A stretch of DNA of 39,162 bases from IMG/VR virus record IMGVR_UViG_2541047691_000016. One strand, given 5' to 3'. Each line of letters starts with the position of its first letter. Within the stretch, counting starts at the first letter, position 1. Shown here in pieces: positions 2,661-24,710 of this stretch. The notes under the pieces are model-generated. The model saw only the letters and a program-made list of their open reading frames with translations, was not told where the DNA came from and made no database searches. Both the position numbers and the translations under genes were made by a program. The stretch is from a virus (Duplodnaviria > Heunggongvirae > Uroviricota > Caudoviricetes).

Positions 2661-3566
2661 CTATATTTCCAGACACCTGTTATCACTTAACCCATTACTG
2701 GCTTGCTGCCGTAGATATTCCCGTGGCGAGCGATAACCCAGTGCACTATGCGGATGCCATTCGTTATAATGCTCGAACGCCTCTGCAAGGTTCTTTGCTG
2801 CCGTTAACCCGTCTGGTTTGGGCATGACACTGATGTAGTCACGCTTTATCGTTTTCACGAAGCTCTCTGCTATGCCGTTACTCTCCGGACTCCGCACCGC
2901 CGTGCTCTTCGGTTCAAGCCCCAACATCCGGGCAAACTGCCGTGTTTCATTAGCCCGGTAGCATGAACCATTATCCGTCAGCCACTCTACTGGAGACGCC
3001 GGAAGCTCGTTGCCGAAGCGGCGTTCCACCGCTCCCAGCATGACGTCCTGTACTGTTTCACTGTTGAAGCCGCCCGTAGTGACCGCCCAGTGCAGTGCCT
3101 CACGGTCACAGCAGTCCAGCGCGAACGTGACTCGCAGTTTTTCTCCGTTATCACAGCGGAACTCGAACCCGTCAGAGCACCATCGCTGATTACTTTCTTT
3201 CACAGCCACTCTGCCTGTATGTGCCCGTTTCGATGGCGGTACAGCAGGTTTTCGCTCAAGCAACAGCGCATTCTGGCGCATGATCCGGTAAACACGTTTG
3301 GCATTGATCGCAGGCATACCATCAAGTTCTGCCTGTCTGCGAAGCAGCGCCCATACCCGACGATAACCATACGTGGGCAGCTCTCCGATAACATGGTGTA
3401 TACGGAGAAGCACATCCGTATCATCAGTGTGACGACTGCGGCGGCCATCCATCCAGTCATCGGTTCGTCTGAGAATGACGTGCAACTGCGCACGCGACAC
3501 CCGGAGACAACGGCTGACTAAGCTTACTCCCCATCCCCGGGCAATAAGGGCGCGTGCGCTATCCAC
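2661..3566 (-). CDS. insD: IS2 transposase OrfB (InsD, DDE integrase domain)
   Basis: 301-aa ORF recognised as IS2 InsD; overlaps insC as expected for the -1 frameshift fusion. Confidence 0.9.
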
Positions 3567-3889
3567 TTTTTTGCCCGTCCATATTCAACGGCTTCTTTGA
3601 GGAGTTCATTTTCCATCGTTTTCTTGCCGAGCAGGCGCTGGAGTTCTTTAATCTGCTTCATGGCGGCAGCAAGTTCAGAGGCAGGAACAACCTGTTCTCC
3701 GGCGGCGACAGCAGTAAGACTTCCTTCCTGGTATTGCTTACGCCAGAGAAATAACTGGCTGGCTGCTACACCATGTTGCCGGGCAACGAGGGAGACCGTC
3801 ATCCCTGGTTCAAAGCTCTGCTGAACAATTGCGATCTTTTCCTGTGTGGTACGCCGTCTGCGTTTCTCCGGTCCTAAGACATCAATCAT
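3524..3889 (-). CDS. insC: IS2 OrfA (InsC, HTH regulator/transposase N-terminal part)
   Basis: Translation from the ATG at 3889 ([18 protein letters not shown]...) matches IS2 InsC; the ORF-track start at 3934 is an upstream extension. Confidence 0.88.
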
Positions 3890-3964
3890 CTGCTCTCCAA
3901 TGACTAGTCTAAAAACTAGTATTAAGACTATCACTTAAATAAGTGATATTGGTTGTCTGGAGAT

Positions 3965-4495
3965 TCAGGGGGCCAGTCTATCTATCTTTTCACCACCTGT
4001 TGCAACAGAAAGTAATTCTGATAGAGCTGATGTATCATCATGAACACCATCACCAATAGCCCCCCACCCTCTTACATCATAACTGTCTCTCCATCTTGCT
4101 ATCTGAAGTTTTGGGTATTTATTCGCTCCATCTGTGTCTTCTAATTGCTGCCGTAACTGATCAGGATCATACTTCAGCACATTAGGAAAATAGAACTGCT
4201 GCGCACCATACGCATCATAAACAGCCATAGAATGGCCTTGCACGGTAACGAATTTGGCAATCTGTCCGTTATATACCGGATATCCAGCAGCGTTAATGAT
4301 TATTGGTTGCGAAACAGGAACGTGAGAACCGTCTTCATTCTCCACATAGACCTGAATCTGGTTTTCTGTATTTACAGGATCAGTGTCAATTTTACCGATA
4401 TAAATTTTGCCATTGGCTACGGCTTTAAAAGAACGCGCCATAGTGAAGAGTTGCGAAGGCATCGATACGATCACATTGGCTGTAATGTCTGTCAT
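3965..4495 (-). pseudogene. Tailspike N-terminal head-binding domain (P22 gp9-like); native sequence is 4495..3986, then the frame runs into IS2 and stops at 3965
   Basis: [40 protein letters not shown]... closely resembles the P22 tailspike N-terminus; the last residues (DRLAP) are IS2-encoded. Confidence 0.88.
3981..3985. repeat. IS2 target-site duplication copy (TCTAT)
   Basis: See partner repeat at 2645-2649. Confidence 0.85.
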
Positions 4496-4595: not shown

Positions 4596-5498
4596 TCAGT
4601 AGTTATGTACTGAAGGAGGTAATTCTTTATTCTTAAGTCTCATCCATGCGGAAAGATTCGTTGGTCCGTCTGGCTCATTAATATCAACATCTCGTGTATG
4701 GTTGATTAAAACATCTCTCGCCATTCCGATAACATACGAGAATTCATGACCGTAGTCGTAGCATCTGCCGGAATAGTTCGATTGAATTTGTTTTAGCGCC
4801 TGATACAGTTCGCGGAATAATGCCTGTGAGCGGTTGGCATAATCCCATAGCCATACAAGGCTGTTTACTTCTTTTGCAGAAAGCTCGTTGGTTTTCTTCT
4901 CTTGTTTGCCGATGAACTCACCTTCAAGCACTACCCTGTGGATGTACTCTACTGCTTGTGGTATCTGAGATGCATCAAGCTCTTCAATACTTTCCACATT
5001 GAAACGCTGATGAATCATTGCATAAGCTTCTGGGTACATTAGATGCTTTTTGCTGACTAGCATATTTACAGCATCACGAAGCGGAGTCCTGTCATCAACA
5101 GATGTTTTCTTCCGTGCATTTGCTGCCTCTCCCTTTGTCCAGTAGTCATGCAGCACAGTAAAGCATTCTTCCTGGTACTGAATCAGTTTATCGCGGATGT
5201 CAGCACGAACTTTCTCAGGGTTGATGCTGAACAGCCATCCATTTAACTTCTTCAAAGGAAGGCAGAGTAGCTTACGAAGCTTACCATCAGCGGCAACCAT
5301 GTTCATATGAACACAGTTGAATTTGCTAATCTGCTTCATGAGTTTTGTTTGCTGCGTTGACCAGCTCATTCCGAGGTTTTCAACGATTGGCTTCATCGCA
5401 ACATATGCAACTCCGGCAGCCATGGCGGTGATAATTTGCTGACCGTTGAATGGCACGTAAGAGGTGTTCACTGCTTCTAAAATTGCTATACTATTCAT
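4596..5498 (-). CDS. ant: Antirepressor Ant (P22 Ant-like, 300 aa)
   Basis: [26 protein letters not shown]... from the ATG at 5498 with GGAG RBS; the ORF-track start at 5564 is an in-frame upstream extension. Confidence 0.88.
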
Positions 5499-5577
5499 GT
5501 TGGTTTTTCTCCACGGATTTACCGACAACCGAAGCCCTGACTGTTCCAGCAGTTGGGGCTTCACTGTTTTGATTTCT
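5499..5577 (+). ncRNA. Candidate sar-like antisense RNA complementary to the ant ribosome-binding region
   Basis: Extended -10 (TGcTATACT, 5484-5492) on the plus strand inside the ant 5' end; GAAGCCC/GGGCTTC hairpin (5531-5562) followed by a U-rich tract; arrangement matches P22 sar. Confidence 0.4.
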
Positions 5578-5730: not shown

Positions 5731-5883
5731 TCACACCGTTACCCCCTCTCTCTTCAGGCTGTCTATCAGGCGCTTGATAACCTCTGAGTTAAACGACCTG
5801 CACTCTTCCTTTGCCCTGCTACCGATAGCATCCTTTAACGACTGCGGCATCCTTACCAAAATCTTACTTATTTCTTTCTCCAT
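5731..5883 (-). CDS. arc: Arc-like ribbon-helix-helix repressor (50 aa)
   Basis: MEKEISKILVRMPQSLKDAIGSRAKEECRSFNSEVIKRLIDSLKREG resembles P22 Arc; GGAGGG RBS upstream of the ATG at 5883. Confidence 0.8.
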   Translation of the reverse strand: MEKEISKILVRMPQSLKDAIGSRAKEECRSFNSEVIKRLIDSLKREGVTV

Positions 5884-5997
5884 GTTACCCTCCACGCAAA
5901 CAACTCTTTTCGAATACAAAAGATAGCAAAGTGAGTATATCTAGTCAAAATTTTTTTGCATACACTTTGCTATCAAATTGAATACCAAAGGTGTTAT
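5884..5997. promoter_or_regulatory. Divergent Pant/Pmnt control region with candidate Arc/Mnt operators
   Basis: Lies between divergent arc and mnt; perfect 11-bp inverted repeat ATAGCAAAGTG (5923-5933) / CACTTTGCTAT (5963-5973), each embedded in AGATA...TATCT-like symmetry. Confidence 0.5.
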
Positions 5998-6246
5998 ATG
6001 GCAAAGGGTGTGTCAATTTCTCCAACTACGGTAAGAATCCCTGAATCTTTACGCGAGGCTCTTGCTGTCAGAGCATCAAAAAATGGTCGCTCTGTTAACT
6101 CCGAGATCGTCATGATTTTGCAAGCCGCGATTGATGAAGATAGGTCGCCAAAGTCAGTTGAGTCATTTGCTCAGCAAGAAGCTGATAAATTCAAAGAGGC
6201 GCTACTTGAGACGCTAAAGACCATGTATGCTAAGGATGAAAAATAA
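5998..6246 (+). CDS. mnt: Mnt-like ribbon-helix-helix repressor (82 aa)
   Basis: MAKGVSISPTTVRIPESLREALAVRASKNGRSVNSEIV... with a C-terminus like P22 Mnt; the ORF-track start at 5956 is an upstream extension. Confidence 0.75.
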   Translation: MAKGVSISPTTVRIPESLREALAVRASKNGRSVNSEIVMILQAAIDEDRSPKSVESFAQQEADKFKEALLETLKTMYAKDEK

Positions 6247-6782
6247 TGCTGCACACAATTCATTTCTTATGCCCTGTTAACACTGCCACTGTTGGGCAAC
6301 TTCAGAACCACTGTCTCACCGCATTATCTCAAGGCGCAACTGAATTAAATATCCATATATCAAGTCAGGGAGGGGAAACTGCTGCTGGCTTTACTGCGTA
6401 TAACTTTCTTAAGTCACTCCCTGTTACCGTTAGAACTCACAACATAAGCAATGTTGAATCCATAGCTAATATCGTTTTCCTGGCTGGCTCAGAACGTTTC
6501 GCAAACCCATTATCAAGATTCCTGTTACATCCTCTATTATGGTGCTTTGCCTCCCCAGCCGCCGACCATGCCAGATTGAGAGAGTACGGGAAATGCCTCG
6601 ATAACGATCTTGATCGCTTCGTTGAGACGTTCAATATCGACATCGGAACCCATATTAGGTGGGCATCCCTGATAGCAGACTCGACCATTTTGGATGCTAA
6701 CAAGGCTCTTGAGCATGGCATAATTAATTCCATAAAAACTGCAAGGCTGGCATCCAATCAGGCAAACTGGTGGGTTGTTTGA
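6246..6782 (+). CDS. Truncated ClpP-family (S14) serine peptidase-like protein, 178 aa, translationally coupled to mnt
   Basis: ISSQGGETAAGFTAYNF...SNVESIANIVFLAGSERFANPLSRFLLHP aligns with the ClpP core (INSPGG..AG..IYD..GQAASMG..LLTAGAKGKRF..NSRVMIHQP), with Ser, His and a candidate Asp in register; about 40 N-terminal ClpP residues are absent; start overlaps the mnt stop (TAATG). Confidence 0.65.
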   Translation: MLHTIHFLCPVNTATVGQLQNHCLTALSQGATELNIHISSQGGETAAGFTAYNFLKSLPVTVRTHNISNVESIANIVFLAGSERFANPLSRFLLHPLLWCFASPAADHARLREYGKCLDNDLDRFVETFNIDIGTHIRWASLIADSTILDANKALEHGIINSIKTARLASNQANWWVV

Positions 6783-6807: not shown

Positions 6808-6834
6808 AAAAAACCCACCTGACGGTGGGTTTAG
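6808..6834. terminator. Bidirectional intrinsic terminator between convergent genes
   Basis: AAACCCACC-TGAC-GGTGGGTTT hairpin with A/T runs on both sides; overlaps the stop codon of the 149-aa gene. Confidence 0.65.
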
Positions 6835-7280
6835 TCAAACATAGTGTTTCTAAAGTCTCTCGCATACCCTGCTAACACTCTCATTCTATTATGATTGTTA
6901 GCAGACATGTGAGCTACAGGATGAAAAAGAGCAATCAATGAATACCTGTTCTCATCAAAAAGATTTTGTGCATAAACGAGAGCGGTATTGGATGTTTTAT
7001 GCCACTGCAACTTTTGCGGTGTGCTGATATCTGTGCCATTTTTTATTGGCTCAAATTTATTTTCACCAATTGCTAAATGAAGGTGCATAAGGCCTGCATC
7101 TTCAATATCAGGAGGTCGATGATAAGAGGTGTCTCTGCCAAAATAGCTGGGCAACGTTCCCGTAGACTTGTAGATGATAAAATCATCTACAAGTGTTTGT
7201 TTTAAATCAGGAAACTCAACAAAAACCGGGGAGAAAAAATAGTCAAAACTATCCTGATTATATTCCACGGTTACTTGCAT
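6831..7280 (-). CDS. Hypothetical protein, 149 aa (distal gene of the AT-rich immI two-gene operon)
   Basis: ORF with GAGG RBS 8 nt after the upstream stop; AT-rich; no family recognised. Confidence 0.6.
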   Translation of the reverse strand: MQVTVEYNQDSFDYFFSPVFVEFPDLKQTLVDDFIIYKSTGTLPSYFGRDTSYHRPPDIEDAGLMHLHLAIGENKFEPIKNGTDISTPQKLQWHKTSNTALVYAQNLFDENRYSLIALFHPVAHMSANNHNRMRVLAGYARDFRNTMFD

Positions 7281-7288
7281 GTTTTACC

Positions 7289-7855
7289 TCAGTGGAAGTT
7301 ACCAGAGTGAAACACACGAGTCCCGTGCTCAGCAAGCGCACGCAAACCAGCCATATCTACGGAACTATCAAAAACAACCGGAACACATGAGCGTTGTTTA
7401 ATAAGACTATTCAGGTTGGTTACGGCAGATCTGGCATCAGCAACAACGATATAGATATCTCTTGCGATCTCTTTAAAATCAGCAGAAGCTTCTTTGAATA
7501 CCGATTTCATTGCCCCTTCAAGTCCTCTCAATTGATGCTCTATCAATCGAGACTTTTCTGGTTCAATGATAGACAACACATTGTCTACATTCTCATCGGT
7601 AGCGTTTGCAAGAACACGATAAGCGTATTTCAGCATTCGAGACAATTCTTTAATCGAAGACACCGCCTCATGAAGCTCATCATTAGCCCGTTCACTGCTG
7701 AATGAGGATTGATGGTAAGCGTGCTGAACGTTATCAGTAACAACCACCTCACAACTGAACGCAGAAGCTTGCTGTAATAGCAAACCTATTGCGACTCCAG
7801 CTTTGGCAGCGTTCAAGCTAAACATTTCATCAATCCCATTAGTCTCATTGCTCAT
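7289..7855 (-). CDS. Hypothetical protein, 188 aa (proximal gene of the immI two-gene operon)
   Basis: ATG at 7855 preceded by AAGGAGG with a 5-nt spacer; the ORF-track start at 7885 is an extension; no family recognised. Confidence 0.6.
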   Translation of the reverse strand: MSNETNGIDEMFSLNAAKAGVAIGLLLQQASAFSCEVVVTDNVQHAYHQSSFSSERANDELHEAVSSIKELSRMLKYAYRVLANATDENVDNVLSIIEPEKSRLIEHQLRGLEGAMKSVFKEASADFKEIARDIYIVVADARSAVTNLNSLIKQRSCVPVVFDSSVDMAGLRALAEHGTRVFHSGNFH

Positions 7856-8030
7856 ACAAACCTCCTTCTTATCGGAGATTATCAATAGCTATGCATCCAT
7901 TGAATACACGCTATGCGCAATAAGTTTACGTCACGTGATATCATTATGCAACCACCGTTCTATCACCGACTAACTTTACTCCCACTCCTATACATCATCT
8001 GGTATCCTGCGCAAAACTAAGGAGGTTGGT

Positions 8031-8381
8031 GTGAATGCTCAGTCTGTCATCATGGTTTTCCTTGGGCTGATTGTCGCAAAACTATATCCAGACTGGTGGA
8101 AAGGGGCATTAGCTACTGTCGCCATCTATTTGCTTTTATCCATCGTTAAGCGATCACTCGCTGAGACCGTAAATCAAGCAAAACGTTTCTCATTTAAGAG
8201 TTTAATAAACTATGTTACTGGGCTTATTTTTTGCCTTTCAATTCTGATCGCTTCGGCTTTTTTGCCCGTATCAATAGCTAATTTTTTTGGCGCACCATAT
8301 GAGGTAGGTTATCTATTCTCTGTTTCCTGTCTTGCCATTGCTCTTCTTTACCTGTGGACGAGATCAAAGAATAAAAATTAG
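8031..8381 (+). CDS. Small multi-pass membrane protein (116 aa), divergent from the two-gene operon; positional analogue of P22 sieA
   Basis: GTG start with TAAGGAGG RBS (8018-8025); three to four hydrophobic segments; no sequence-level identification. Confidence 0.55.
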   Translation: MNAQSVIMVFLGLIVAKLYPDWWKGALATVAIYLLLSIVKRSLAETVNQAKRFSFKSLINYVTGLIFCLSILIASAFLPVSIANFFGAPYEVGYLFSVSCLAIALLYLWTRSKNKN

Positions 8382-8398
8382 CCATCCGTGGCTGCCAG

Positions 8399-10414
8399 TT
8401 ATTGAGCTTCTTTTTGTGATGCCTGTGCGACTCTGGTGAGCGATTGTGTGACCGTACTGATCGCTCTGTCATATGCTGTGCTACCTTTTGGCGTATTTGC
8501 CAGACGTAACAAGGCATTTCGTATAACAGGGCTTTCGTATGCCTTCGCAGCTCCTCCTACGACACCAGCAGCAGGAACAACAAACGCAGCCGTTTTTAGC
8601 ATCCCCGCTAATACTGCTGCGTTTATGATGCCACCACCAACTAACAATCCATAAAGCTGCTGACCATTTAAGTTTTGAACGTTCGCTTTTGCCGCGTGTC
8701 TTGTATCGTTGAGGTATTTAATAACGCCGTCCAGTTCCTTTCCATGTACGCCTTTAAAGAAAGTTGCTGATTGCTTCCTGTTCCGGTGTAACGCATTAAT
8801 AAACTTTTCAACACTAATATTTCCAGACGGATCAGTCGCCTTATCTACAGCATTCTGAACTATGGCTGCTCGTGCGTTTTGCCTACCATTGTCATCCAGA
8901 AGCCTGTAAAGCTGAGAACGTTCTGATGGGTTTTGGCTAAAAACGAGTTTTGTTACATCCTCAGGTGTAGCCTTGCCGCTGGCTATTGCCTTTTGAACGC
9001 GCGTTCTTCCCATCATGTCATTGAATCTAGCCCATGAGCGATCAACCCTAGACATATTGGCAGCTTCTTCTGAGCCTAGTTTTTGGGATACTGCTTTTTT
9101 CATATCCGCTGTATATGCCTTGTAGACAATATCGCTGGCTTTCTGGAGCGTGTCTTTATCAACAGTCTCGTTTGAATTCATGAACCGCTTTCGAAGGTCA
9201 GTTCTGTTTTCTCTCGCCAGACGCAGGTCATTGGGTCCGCTGGTGATATCGTCTTTAAATTGCTGCAAGACTTTTACCGCGGCTCTATCCTGAGATTTGC
9301 CCGGGCGGCTTAACACGGCAATCTGATTGTCGATAGCTTTTACCGTGTTTGAGAGATCGACAGGGGTATCCCCCATAGCGTCAATTATGCGGTTATATCG
9401 CTTTCCTGCTGCCTCAATGAATTTTTGTTGCCCTTTAGTCGCAGATTCATAAAGCTGTTTATCAGAAATGCCACCCAGACCATCGCTAAATGTTCTGACT
9501 AAATTTTCTCGTGCTTGTTGTTGATTCAGCCGATTCTTACCGGTTCCAAAAAAAGGAACTCTTTCGCCTAATGTCTGAGCCTGACTCTGCATAAAGGTTT
9601 TATCTTTCAGCGTGTCACTGGTCATTAACGGCAGGTTTCTTTCCGACGCAAAATCGACAGCAGCCTTTGCTTCCGGTGACATCTCACCGCGAACAGCCCT
9701 GGAAACCGCACTAACTGTATTTTCCAGCCCCTTGCCAACACCACCAATGCCAGCAGAAATTACCGTTTGTGCAGGATCAATATCTTCTCCGCCAGCAAGG
9801 CTGGTGCCACCCTGTAGTGCTAAATCTGTAGCAGCTGATTTCCCTATGGCACCAAGCACCGTTCCAGCCCTGCCCGCTGGTGTGAACGCTAACGCATTAG
9901 CAAGAAACGAAGTCAGGTCTTGCGGTGATAAACCTGGCTTGTTCAGGGCATAATCACCGGATGGCAGGGAAACGATAGTGTTACCCTTCTCATCCTGCCT
10001 TAATTTCGCCCCCATACTCTGAAGAATCTTTTCCTGAGACGCGTCGGAGCCGAAAAGTTGAGACCATCCAGCCTTCAGGGCATCCATGCTTAGTGAGTTC
10101 AACTCAGGGGCAGCCCCAACATTTTGCAGTCTCTCCATTTCTGGTGTCATTCGGCTTTCACCGGTAACGGCATCGCGCATTGCAGCACCTAAAACAGCCC
10201 CTTGCTCAGCAGAGCGATCTAGTCCTTCCTTCTGCTGAGTGGCAAGCTGTGCATATCCTGATGCAAGTGAGTTGTCTGCTGGCGATTGCTGAACACCTTG
10301 TTGTGTTGGCGCTGACTGACCAGCAAAATACTCATCAATGGCGGACCCAATATCTTCCGTGCTCGTACCATCAGGAAAGGTAAATGTCTTACCATTTGCA
10401 GTTACTTTCATCAT
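8399..10414 (-). CDS. Ejection (DNA transfer) protein, P22 gp16-like
   Basis: 671-aa ORF last in the gp7-gp20-gp16 order after the tail needle; Gly/Ala-rich, typical of E-proteins. Confidence 0.8.
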
Positions 10415-11862
10415 TCCACCGTAAATTGAATGCCTGATTTTGACGTGTAGCTACCTCCTGCTGATTGCTGAGTAGCTGGCTGTTGCCTTGATGATTTCTT
10501 CCCGCCATTACCAACATTAACGTTATATTGCTGGTTGTAATTGTCGGTATATTGCTGAATGTCGCGCATTGATTGTTGCAGCGCTTCAGGACTTGAGAAA
10601 TCAGGCTTTGGCATACCCTGAAAATACCTATTGGCCTCTGCTTCGGTGTTGATGCCAGATGCCCCCATATCTCGGGCTGCTGCAATCCCCTGATTTTGCA
10701 TTTTGCCCATGATTCGCTGTGCAGCGTTGTATGGCCTCCTCTCCTCAACACCAGATGCCCTGCTACGAATATCTGCACCAAGAGCAAAAGAACCTGAAGA
10801 ACCTGTAATACCTGTCATGAAGCCAAGATCGTCAATTGATGCGCCAGAAATTGCATCAAGATCTTTCTTCATTTCGTAATTCTGTGCATTAGCTGCCGAT
10901 GTAGCCGGAGCAGCAATAGAACTGGCGGGGACGCGAATCATATTGCCCTCGTTGTCTATTCCTTCGTAGAACGCATTAGCACCAGCGCCGTGAAGCTTCC
11001 TACCAACCGTTACCGTTCTGCCATCTGCCAGTTGCACAACATTCTCCCCGCCAGCATCAGGACGACCTCGAACACGAAGATATGTCTTTTGTTGCTCTGG
11101 AGACAGGCTGTTGAAATATTGATATTCTTTAACAGATGCAGGAACAGCACCTCCAGCAGTGCGCAGGGAGTTTTCACGGCTAACAGCAATGCTTTGCGCC
11201 TTTAAACCTTCCCCAGCTTTATTGCTGCGAATCGTCTCTGCCAACTTGCCACGCTCAATATCCCGACCTTCCATTTGATCTTTGATATCGAAATACTTCT
11301 CATGACCGAGAGAAAATAGTGCCAGATTACCTGCGAAGTGCTGGAAGCCCTGCGGGTCATTAACCTGCATTTCCGCAATAGTTTCTGGAGGGATACCTAA
11401 ACGACGCATCTCCTTTTCGTTATCCATCATGAACCTGCCAAATGCACCCGGACCAAGCGACGAAGCGACCTGAGCCTTAAGCGCCAGATTGCCAAAATCA
11501 TCCCGCTGGGCGTCATCGACATACCCCATGCCTTTACGGACTTCCTCAAACTCTTCGGGGAATGCTGTAATAAGATTACGCATCTGCTCCCTGTCGCCGG
11601 ACGCATAAGCATCCGCATAACCTTTCTGGAATGCCGCTTTACGCTCCTGCTTTTGCTGCTGCTTATAAATATCAGCAACTCCAGCCAGACCACGAAGACC
11701 TGTCAGAGCAACGTTATTTGCACCTGATCGAGCCAGTTCATTGTTTTCGCGGATCAGACCAAGCGTTGCGTTAATGTCGCTTGCCTTTGGCGCATTCTCA
11801 TTTTGCGTACCGATGCCAGCCAGAAACCCACCAGAATTAATACCCTGTTGCCACGTAGCCAT
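10411..11862 (-). CDS. Ejection protein, P22 gp20-like
   Basis: 483-aa ORF, position and size match P22 gp20; overlaps the gp16 start. Confidence 0.8.
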
Positions 11863-23492: not shown

Positions 23493-23930
23493 TCATCGAA
23501 GGCATTGCGTCCTGATGTACTCCTGCAGGTAGTTAACCTGCGCGGTTATCCTGTCGATTCCACTTCGGAGACGGTAATAATTGAGTTCAGCATCTGCTGT
23601 AAGTCTTGGGTTTTCTCCATCGCCCATGCTGCTGGCTCCGGTCGTTGACTTTGCACAGGTGGCGGCGACTTGCAGGCGCTTACGCCCAGCAGAAACATCA
23701 GCACGGAGACTTTCGATAGTCGCGTTAGCATCAGCAAGCTCCTTTGTGTATCTTGCGTCGAGTTCTGCTACATCACGTTGACGCTTCCGCATATCAGCGA
23801 TGATGGATGTGGCTTTATCGCGCTGCTCTTTGTAGGCGATTGCATTATCACGGTAATGATTAACAGCCCATGACAGGCAGACGATGATGCAAATAATCAG
23901 AGCGGAGATAATCGCGGTGACTCTGCTCAT
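23493..23930 (-). CDS. Rz: i-spanin Rz
   Basis: N-terminal TM segment plus coiled-coil; follows the endolysin; contains Rz1 in the +1 frame. Confidence 0.85.
23546..23737 (-). CDS. Rz1: o-spanin Rz1 (outer-membrane lipoprotein embedded in Rz)
   Basis: Lipobox LLGVSAC followed by a proline-rich segment ([13 protein letters not shown]); fully embedded in Rz. Confidence 0.8.
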
Positions 23931-24403
23931 ACCTCAATCTCTCTGACCGTTCCGCCAGCCTCTTTGAATTTTGCAATCAGGTTGTCAGCCTTATGCTCGA
24001 ACTGACCATAACCAGCGCCCGGCAGTGAAGCCCAGATATTGCTGCAACGGTCGATTGCCTGACGAATATCACCGCGGTCAATCATCGGTAAAGCGCCACG
24101 CTCTTTAATCTGCTGCAATGCCACAGCGTCCTGACTTTTCGGAGAGAAGTCTTTCAGACCAAGCTGCTTACGGTAGGCATCCCACCAACGGGAAAGAAGC
24201 TGGTAGCGTCCGGCGGCTGTTGATTTGAGTTTTGGGTTTAGCGTGACAAGCTTGCGAGGGTGATCGGAGTAATCAGTAAATAGCTCTCCGCCTACAATGA
24301 CGTCATAACCATGATTTCTGGTTTTCTGCCGTCCGTTATCAGTTCCCTCTGACCACGCCAGCATATCGAGGAACGCCTTACGTTGATTATTGATTTCCAC
24401 CAT
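23927..24403 (-). CDS. R: Endolysin, lambda R-type lytic transglycosylase
   Basis: [42 protein letters not shown]... near-identical to lambda R as recalled. Confidence 0.93.
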
Positions 24404-24710
24404 CTTCTACTCCGGCTTTTTTAGCAGCGAAGCGTTTGATAAGCGAACCAATCGAGTCAGTACCGATGTAGCCGATGAACACGCTCGTTATATAAGCGAG
24501 ATTGCTACTTAGTCCGGCGAAGTCGAGAAGGTCACGAATGAACCAGGCGATAATGGCGCACATCGTTGCGTCGATTACTGTTTTTGTAAACGCACCGCCA
24601 TTATATCTGCCGCGAAGGTACGCCATTGCAAACGCAAGGATTGCCCCGATGCCTTGTTCCTTTGCCGCGAGAATGGCGGCTAACAGGTCATGTTTTTCTG
24701 GCATCTTCAT
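24387..24710 (-). CDS. S: Holin, lambda S-type (S107/S105 dual start)
   Basis: [39 protein letters not shown]... near-identical to lambda S as recalled. Confidence 0.93.

Follow-up and report, generated by a model that had tools for sequence, protein, structure and literature searches.

Among inhibitors of the trans-envelope DNA conduit of podoviruses, SieA alone has been characterised. A 2024 survey of sieA diversity described three homologous types, found most P22-like phages to be without sieA, and named FxRYPxEAxxFNK as the most conserved feature of types A-C (Leavitt et al. 2024, PMC10883804). At the inner membrane SieA targets the C-terminal regions of gp16 and gp20, and a standing question is how it can recognise versions of these proteins that diverge so widely (PMC10883804). 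The gp20 C-terminal domain faces the cytoplasmic membrane and gp16 associates with it; P22 gp16 alone opens no membrane (bioRxiv 10.64898/2026.09.03.749273). On the P22 map, sieA lies on the opposite strand, 22 bp from the end of gene 16, and is read the same way as mnt. T4 and HK97 also encode small proteins of the inner membrane, Imm and gp15, that stop phage DNA from entering at the cytoplasmic membrane. Immunity proteins of pore-forming colicins likewise reside in the inner membrane, with ~100-180 aa and 3-4 TM helices, and their genes lie on the opposite strand, directly downstream of one encoding a membrane-active protein; the immunity protein acts against the C-terminal region of the latter.

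We analysed a 39,162-nt window (IMG/VR record IMGVR_UViG_2541047691_000016), a complete CUS-3-like, P22-like E. coli prophage that runs opposite to the P22 map. On its + strand, 8031..8381 is an ORF whose 116-aa product is predicted to cross the membrane four times (the 4-TM ORF and 4-TM protein below). An earlier note, made from the sequence alone, had placed this ORF, as the gene of a small membrane protein, at the map position of P22 sieA and had left similarity to SieA unconfirmed. The position held up: like P22 sieA and the type-B sieA of prophage HS1, the ORF occupies the slot between gene 16 and the immI/tailspike region (homologs of genes 16 and 9) and converges on gene 16; it stops ~20 nt from the gene-16 stop codon over a related hairpin and shares its direction with mnt. 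A true sieA homolog holds the same slot in 103 E. coli genomes. The transcriptional layout given in the note was also found, with the ORF reading away from a two-gene operon (7885 to 6831) and toward the gp16 gene (8399..10414, - strand).

The surroundings of the ORF are mosaic. From ~11659 onward, across the virion assembly genes, the window is 99.7% identical to phage CUS-3, and it differs from CUS-3 in gp16 (671 aa, an ejection or DNA-transfer protein), most of gp20 (10411-11862, - strand) and the region downstream. Mosaic joints fall in or near gene 20, where the match to phiv205-1 begins at ~10508 and that to CUS-3 at ~11659, so the module of gp16 and C-terminal gp20 differs from the nearest sequenced phages. 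No sequenced phage carries the window gp16, and the nearest, N7, reaches 70-72% amino-acid identity. On the other side of the slot, the window holds a complete P22-type immI region made up of sar, arc and an mnt-like gene: ant (4596-5564, - strand) is overlapped at its start by a full-length sar antisense RNA (5499-5565, + strand; Rfam RF00262, 83.9 bits, E=2e-17), followed by arc (5731-5919, - strand) and a Mnt/Arc-like repressor gene (5956-6246, + strand). Directly after the latter, with a stop/start overlap, lies a gene for a 178-aa ClpP-like (head-maturation-protease-like) protein (6246-6782, + strand), in an orientation expressed in the lysogen and in an odd place for a protease.

The divergent two-gene operon (6831-7885) comprises a YafO-family toxin homolog (6831-7280, - strand; PF13957, E=3e-22) and, upstream of it, a gene for a 198-aa protein of phrog_8416, a group with no known function (7289-7885, - strand). 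Some copies of this prophage have it and others (L024, L025) do not, so that it counts as an insertion of its own; it is a candidate for a toxin-antitoxin or defence pair. We considered the 4-TM ORF as a partner of this operon and rejected the idea, as many loci carry the ORF without it: the operon is absent from L024, L025, L003 and all island copies of the ORF. The other neighbours vary between loci as well, and the 4-TM ORF is therefore an autonomous unit.

The GTG at 8031 is the most upstream start available to the frame and stands 5 nt downstream of a perfect Shine-Dalgarno site, TAAGGAGGT (8018..8026, + strand), in agreement with the 116-aa length, GTG start and strong ribosome-binding site reported in the note; the ORF closes with TAG. 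In E. coli ATCC 11775, whose DNA is identical here, PGAP/RefSeq annotates a 109-aa 'hypothetical protein' (WP_011703616.1) that starts at the internal ATG 8052. Homologs of 37-38% identity, however, carry an ATG at the codon of the window GTG and keep the MN.Q N-terminus together with the Shine-Dalgarno site, and since such distant homologs start at the same codon, the 116-aa start is better supported than the PGAP start. The Shine-Dalgarno string CTAA(A)GG(GA)GGTTGGTGTGAA is kept in loci that differ both in the DNA before it and in the ORF after it. Against the Yersinia enterocolitica copy we obtained dS 1.24, dN 0.18 and dN/dS 0.14, and against the Edwardsiella copy, at low divergence, dN/dS 0.39; the ORF is a real gene under purifying selection, not a chance ORF. 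At 39.9%, its GC content is below the 47.5% of the prophage, which makes it moron-like in this respect.

Expression from a resident prophage or island is most likely. The divergent intergenic region (7886..8030) holds only weak + strand promoter candidates: a relaxed scan returned two extended -10 elements, TGaTATCAT (7936-7944) and TGgTATCCT (8000-8008), both weak, and a consensus sigma-70 scan of the + strand upstream of the ORF returned no site. Phylogenetic footprinting upstream of the ORF failed because the DNA is not kept between contexts such as the islands and Yersinia. An Rfam scan gave no RNA family at the locus.

To place the protein among known families we compared it with sequence, profile and structure databases. 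Searches of Pfam (E<=0.01; in a release apparently older than PF26849) and PHROGs gave no match, NCBIfam gave noise only (LIC10906_fam, 17.6 bits against a cut-off of 200), and PADLOC-DB gave no family at E<=1; P22 SieA itself has no PADLOC model, so PADLOC is blind to Sie-type proteins. Among 50,697 phage genomes tblastn found no match to the protein, and megablast of the locus region against phages yielded nothing beyond fragments of 33-36 nt. A word-indexed search of 5.8 billion proteins found 19 matching clusters; all are labelled 'hypothetical', and they come from E. coli, Salmonella, Edwardsiella tarda and Yersinia enterocolitica. When 1.84 billion representatives at 50% identity were searched exhaustively by HMM, the search returned seven family members, four of them new at ~38% identity, and linked the family to no other. 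Sequence-profile search of the PDB gave a single match (E=8.9), and Foldseek of the model against BFVD gave a best E of 0.39, a value that is meaningless for a helical model of pLDDT 64. Species-representative genomes contained no relatives, and the one match in a plasmid scan lies on a 4.9-Mb record that is evidently a chromosome. Taken over these searches, the 4-TM proteins appear as a very small orphan family, found in E. coli, Salmonella, Edwardsiella, Yersinia and metagenomes. Within E. coli the gene is present in 280 of 5426 complete genomes (~5%) and is common in ExPEC/APEC strains of the ST95 type. We found no paper describing the family, and the 2024 survey of sieA diversity does not mention it (PMC10883804).

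Two further identities were considered and set aside. A GtrA-like flippase (~120 aa, 4 TM, O-antigen conversion) was rejected in view of the missing Pfam GtrA match and of the locus, which has no neighbouring gtr genes. A holin was rejected on the lack of a Pfam or PHROG match and on Foldseek holin matches of E>=0.8; the holin/endolysin/lysis region, as placed by the annotation of related prophages, is at 23493-24710 of the window, far from the 4-TM ORF.

The note had counted three to four hydrophobic segments, and our predictions favour four. Kyte-Doolittle hydropathy (19-residue window) peaks near residues 10 (1.6), 35 (1.7), 74 (2.5) and 101 (1.8), all reaching or exceeding the threshold of 1.6 usual for membrane segments. 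Two AlphaFold2 runs, fed with 7 and 10 aligned sequences and of low to moderate confidence (mean pLDDT 57 and 64), placed the same helices at about 3-18, 22/23-49, 55-85 and 90-114/115. Across 10 family members, the N-terminus, loop 2 and the C-terminus together hold 75 lysines and arginines, against 18 in loops 1 and 3, a bias from which the positive-inside rule gives a four-pass topology with both ends inside. From the hydropathy, the charge bias and a modest-confidence model, the product is thus predicted to be a four-helix inner-membrane protein with both termini in the cytoplasm, a basic cytoplasmic loop at residues 40-56 and a basic tail at residues 110-116 (C-terminus ...LLYLWTRSKNKN). 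Its best-conserved motifs, KLYPDWW (17-23) and APYEVGY (88-94), form two very short turns on the predicted periplasmic face, and the residues K17, L18, Y19 and P20 never vary among homologs down to 37% identity.

Relatedness to SieA, by contrast with the shared position, found no support. BLASTP of the protein against P22 SieA gave E=0.29. Alignment of the 10-sequence family profile by hhalign with a SieA profile, built from eight type-A sequences and the experimentally tested type-B SieA of prophage HS1, gave a probability of 0.1%. The same method can detect a distant SieA, since the 191-aa protein of locus L012, only 29-34% identical to P22 and HS1 SieA, scored 97.2% (E=3.4e-11) as a positive control. 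The FxRYPxEAxxFNK motif, present in the P22, HS1 and L012 proteins, is absent throughout the 4-TM protein, as is the FENRxxD element. We therefore rejected membership in the SieA family (PF26849) on BLASTP, profile and motif; of what the note raised, the slot and the membrane character stand and relatedness to SieA falls. The predicted architecture nonetheless matches the one published for SieA types B and C, with four TM helices, both ends inside, short periplasmic loops, and a basic cytoplasmic loop and tail (PMC10883804). The proteins differ in size (116 aa against 164-212 aa for SieA) and in the cytoplasmic loop (17 aa against ~50 aa), and the C-tail of the 4-TM protein is 7 aa. No SieA is encoded elsewhere in the window, nor within 6 kb at 17 IMG/VR viral loci.

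We surveyed the slot by searching 5426 complete E. coli genomes with the 4-TM ORF and the gp16 3' end as a joint query. Both parts were present in 185 genomes; many more had the gp16 end only, with the match breaking at query position 350/352 (the hairpin) or 368 (the gp16 stop). In the 103 genomes mentioned above, the slot allele encodes a 191-aa true SieA homolog (L012) with the motifs FKNRLSD and NRYPGEA, joined at the hairpin to a gp16 3' end that is 88-96% identical to the window at the nucleotide level; the 4-TM ORF and a true sieA homolog are allelic at one and the same gp16 end. A third allele, found in 126 complete E. coli genomes, encodes a secreted protein of ~131 aa with no family match (L013:3542-3940; L014:3554-3955) and what looks like a cleavable signal peptide, VNQLKRLVVSGLLFASFGANA/E.... 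The upstream DNA, the Shine-Dalgarno site, the GTG and the next codon, AAT, are common to this allele and the 4-TM allele, which places the joint between the two within their first two codons. The slot is filled by ORF14 (106 aa, a single TM) in phage N7, which has a gp16 72% identical to that of the window, and in CUS-3 by HkcB, with a single TM helix and a coiled coil. HkcB (of HK620, CUS-3 and epsilon34) and N7 ORF14 resemble the 4-TM protein in being small (~106 aa), anchored in the membrane and encoded just after gene 16 in convergent orientation. They differ from it in having a single N-terminal TM helix and a soluble or coiled-coil part, and share no sequence similarity with it.

The 3' boundary of the slot is a short palindromic hairpin, AGCCATCCGTGGCT (8380..8393), that overlaps the stop codon of the 4-TM ORF. 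It is terminator-like for gp16 on the - strand, with a T-run after it, and this label draws only on its conservation and the T-run, as the hairpin folds no better than shuffled sequence and is thermodynamically weak. The palindrome (A)GCCATCC(R)TGGC(T) after gene 16 is common to the slot alleles. In the form GCC(A/G)TCC(N)TGGC it follows gene 16 in P22 (L002), in the Yersinia prophage and in the islands described below, and it is degenerate in CUS-3 and HS1; the Yersinia locus (L003) has a second copy, AGCCTTCCATGGCT, upstream of the 4-TM ORF. The P22 hairpin between gene 16 and sieA, GCCGTCCTTGGCT, is nearly identical to that of the Yersinia copy, and this near-identity of the gene 16 3' palindromes makes the P22 and window slots homologous. 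Homology between alleles stops at the palindrome, which to judge from these joints behaves as a boundary for cassette exchange, and the slot occupants are exchanged as cassettes that, for the 4-TM gene, comprise the Shine-Dalgarno site, the GTG, the ORF and the hairpin.

Slot alleles also lie on ~19-kb integrative islands, represented by L018 (E. coli D8, NZ_CP010151.1 4298000-4322000) and also by L012, L013, L014, L016, L004, L008 and L026-L032, which occupy chromosomal sites at yicC/dinD, at ykgL and near vat. Their genes include an integrase, an AlpA-like HTH protein, Ash-family and AntA/B proteins, a TOPRIM+DUF927 primase and a PerC-family regulator, together with homologs of P22 gp14 (DUF2824), gp7, gp20 and gp16, and no capsid, portal or terminase genes. 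From this gene content, the islands look like P22-like phage satellites that bring their own ejection proteins; a literature search on them gave no relevant match. The gp16 3' ends of prophage and islands are 88-96% identical in DNA, which argues that the two kinds of element exchange the gp16 module.

The 4-TM ORF is consistently linked to gp16. In the window it ends 17 nt from the convergent gp16 stop codon, and a spacing of ~17 nt recurs in 17 of 17 IMG/VR loci and in eight other complete loci: the window itself (L001), L003 (Yersinia), L004 (Edwardsiella), L006, L008, L009 (metagenomic), L015, L016 (E. coli islands). The 1-kb contig L007 repeats the arrangement of L006 and was left out of the gp16 comparison, as it contains only 42 residues of the convergent gene. 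The gp16 next to the 4-TM ORF is of a single sequence type, 63-100% identical to the window gp16, and the identities of ORF and gp16 rise and fall together (99/100, 88/94, 71/75 and 38-40/67-69%). The sole exception is found in O111:H8 strains, where a remnant 4-TM ORF adjoins ykgL and gp16 has been lost. The window gp16 is 30% identical to that of P22 and keeps G532, the P22 SieA-escape site, with a hydrophobic Gly/Ala-rich stretch directly after it.

Position, allelism and architecture together suggest an exclusion function directed at the ejection machinery, and our leading, though tentative, reading makes the 4-TM protein an analogue of SieA without homology to it, which may stop the DNA of P22-like phages from entering at the inner membrane. 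Expressed from a resident prophage or island, the protein would be placed in the inner membrane. On superinfection by a P22-like phage it would stop the productive gp20-gp16 membrane step, or completion of the DNA-delivery conduit, at the outer face of or within the cytoplasmic membrane, and keep the incoming DNA out of the cytoplasm. It would work through its membrane helices and the two conserved aromatic turns that face the periplasm, and its presumed target would be the gp16-class protein brought in by the superinfecting phage. All known or candidate occupants of the slot are envelope proteins and the sole characterised one is an exclusion protein, which is suggestive and falls short of proof; HkcB, N7 ORF14 and the secreted ~131-aa protein need not be exclusion proteins. 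The reading as a SieA analogue is weakened by the lack of shared homology or motif, by these other uncharacterised occupants and by the lack of a convincing or conserved promoter. A broader scheme, possible in our view but doubtful, would make the gene 16 3' end a dedicated, hairpin-bounded cassette site at which P22-like prophages and the satellite-like islands swap unrelated envelope proteins. Its occupants (SieA types, the 4-TM family, a secreted protein and HkcB-like proteins) would each inhibit the incoming conduit differently, with the 4-TM proteins as a fourth, non-homologous class of injection-blocking 'immunity' proteins that would touch gp20 or gp16 through their conserved periplasm-facing loops, KLYPDWW and APYEVGY.

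If the 4-TM protein does block injection, its 116 aa and near lack of soluble parts would narrow the block to the membrane or the periplasmic face, and it would offer a comparative handle on the question of SieA recognition. With the gene in ~5% of complete E. coli genomes, ExPEC/APEC ST95 strains included, it could affect the susceptibility of K1 strains to CUS-3-type phages. As a candidate non-homologous occupant of a superinfection-exclusion slot, the protein will seem plausible rather than startling to P22 specialists.

An unlikely alternative to the SieA analogue is a lysogenic-conversion or fitness gene, acting in envelope stress, transport or host interaction, that happens to sit in a recombination-permissive slot. 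The slot accepts unrelated cargo (HkcB, N7 ORF14, the secreted protein), the gene is common in strains of the ExPEC/APEC ST95 type, and the O111:H8 copy survives alone after loss of gp16, all as such a role would have it. The envelope character of every occupant and the exclusion activity of the one characterised speak against it, however, as does the confinement of the family, that one remnant excepted, to gp16-carrying elements.

Quite unlikely, in our estimate, is a membrane defence of another kind, either a SieB/RexB-like abortive-infection or depolarising effector or a protein that excludes phages other than P22-like ones, as T4 Imm and HK97 gp15 do for their own phage types. A small protein with several membrane passes, encoded in a low-GC, moron-like cassette, would suit this role; the gene is carried by the prophage and by islands with Abi, Panacea and toxin genes, and no homology binds it to SieA specifically. 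Imm and gp15 themselves are unrelated to it in sequence and belong to other phage types with other targets, and no family model matched the 4-TM protein. That the ORF keeps so strictly to the gp16 3' end and is allelic with sieA nevertheless points to the ejection machinery, the protein matches nothing in PADLOC or Pfam, and no partner gene is conserved beside the ORF.

We regard as improbable a role as an immunity-like partner of the element's own gp16, protecting the carrier cell or modulating the membrane activity of gp16. The module is inherited with one gp16 type and the divergence of ORF and gp16 rises in step; the gp16 C-terminal stretch, hydrophobic and Gly/Ala-rich, lies at the region to which P22 SieA-escape mutations map; and the layout resembles that of the convergent 3-4-TM immunity genes after pore-forming colicin genes. 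That likeness is one of layout only, with no homology, and gp16 is not a colicin. The same gp16 type also occurs with sieA, the secreted protein or N7 ORF14, so gp16 needs no 4-TM ORF, and the ORF lies on the strand opposite to the late operon and is hence not co-expressed with gp16. P22 gp16, moreover, opens no membrane by itself (bioRxiv 10.64898/2026.09.03.749273).

That the ORF is a chance or decaying, non-functional frame, as its lack of a family match and its PGAP name 'hypothetical protein' might imply, is so improbable that we set it aside: its dN/dS of 0.14 at a dS of 1.24, the retention of start codon, Shine-Dalgarno site and length across genera down to 37% identity, and its 280 carriers among complete E. 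coli genomes essentially refute it.

Elsewhere in the window, the gene for the K1-specific endosialidase tailspike is split into a head-binding N-terminus (3965-4495) and a catalytic part (214-2676), with IS3-family transposase ORFs (2661-3566 and 3524-3934) between the two halves. This copy of the CUS-3-like prophage is probably unable to make functional tailspikes. In ATCC 11775 an IS21/ISEc12 element lies between the tailspike gene and ant instead.
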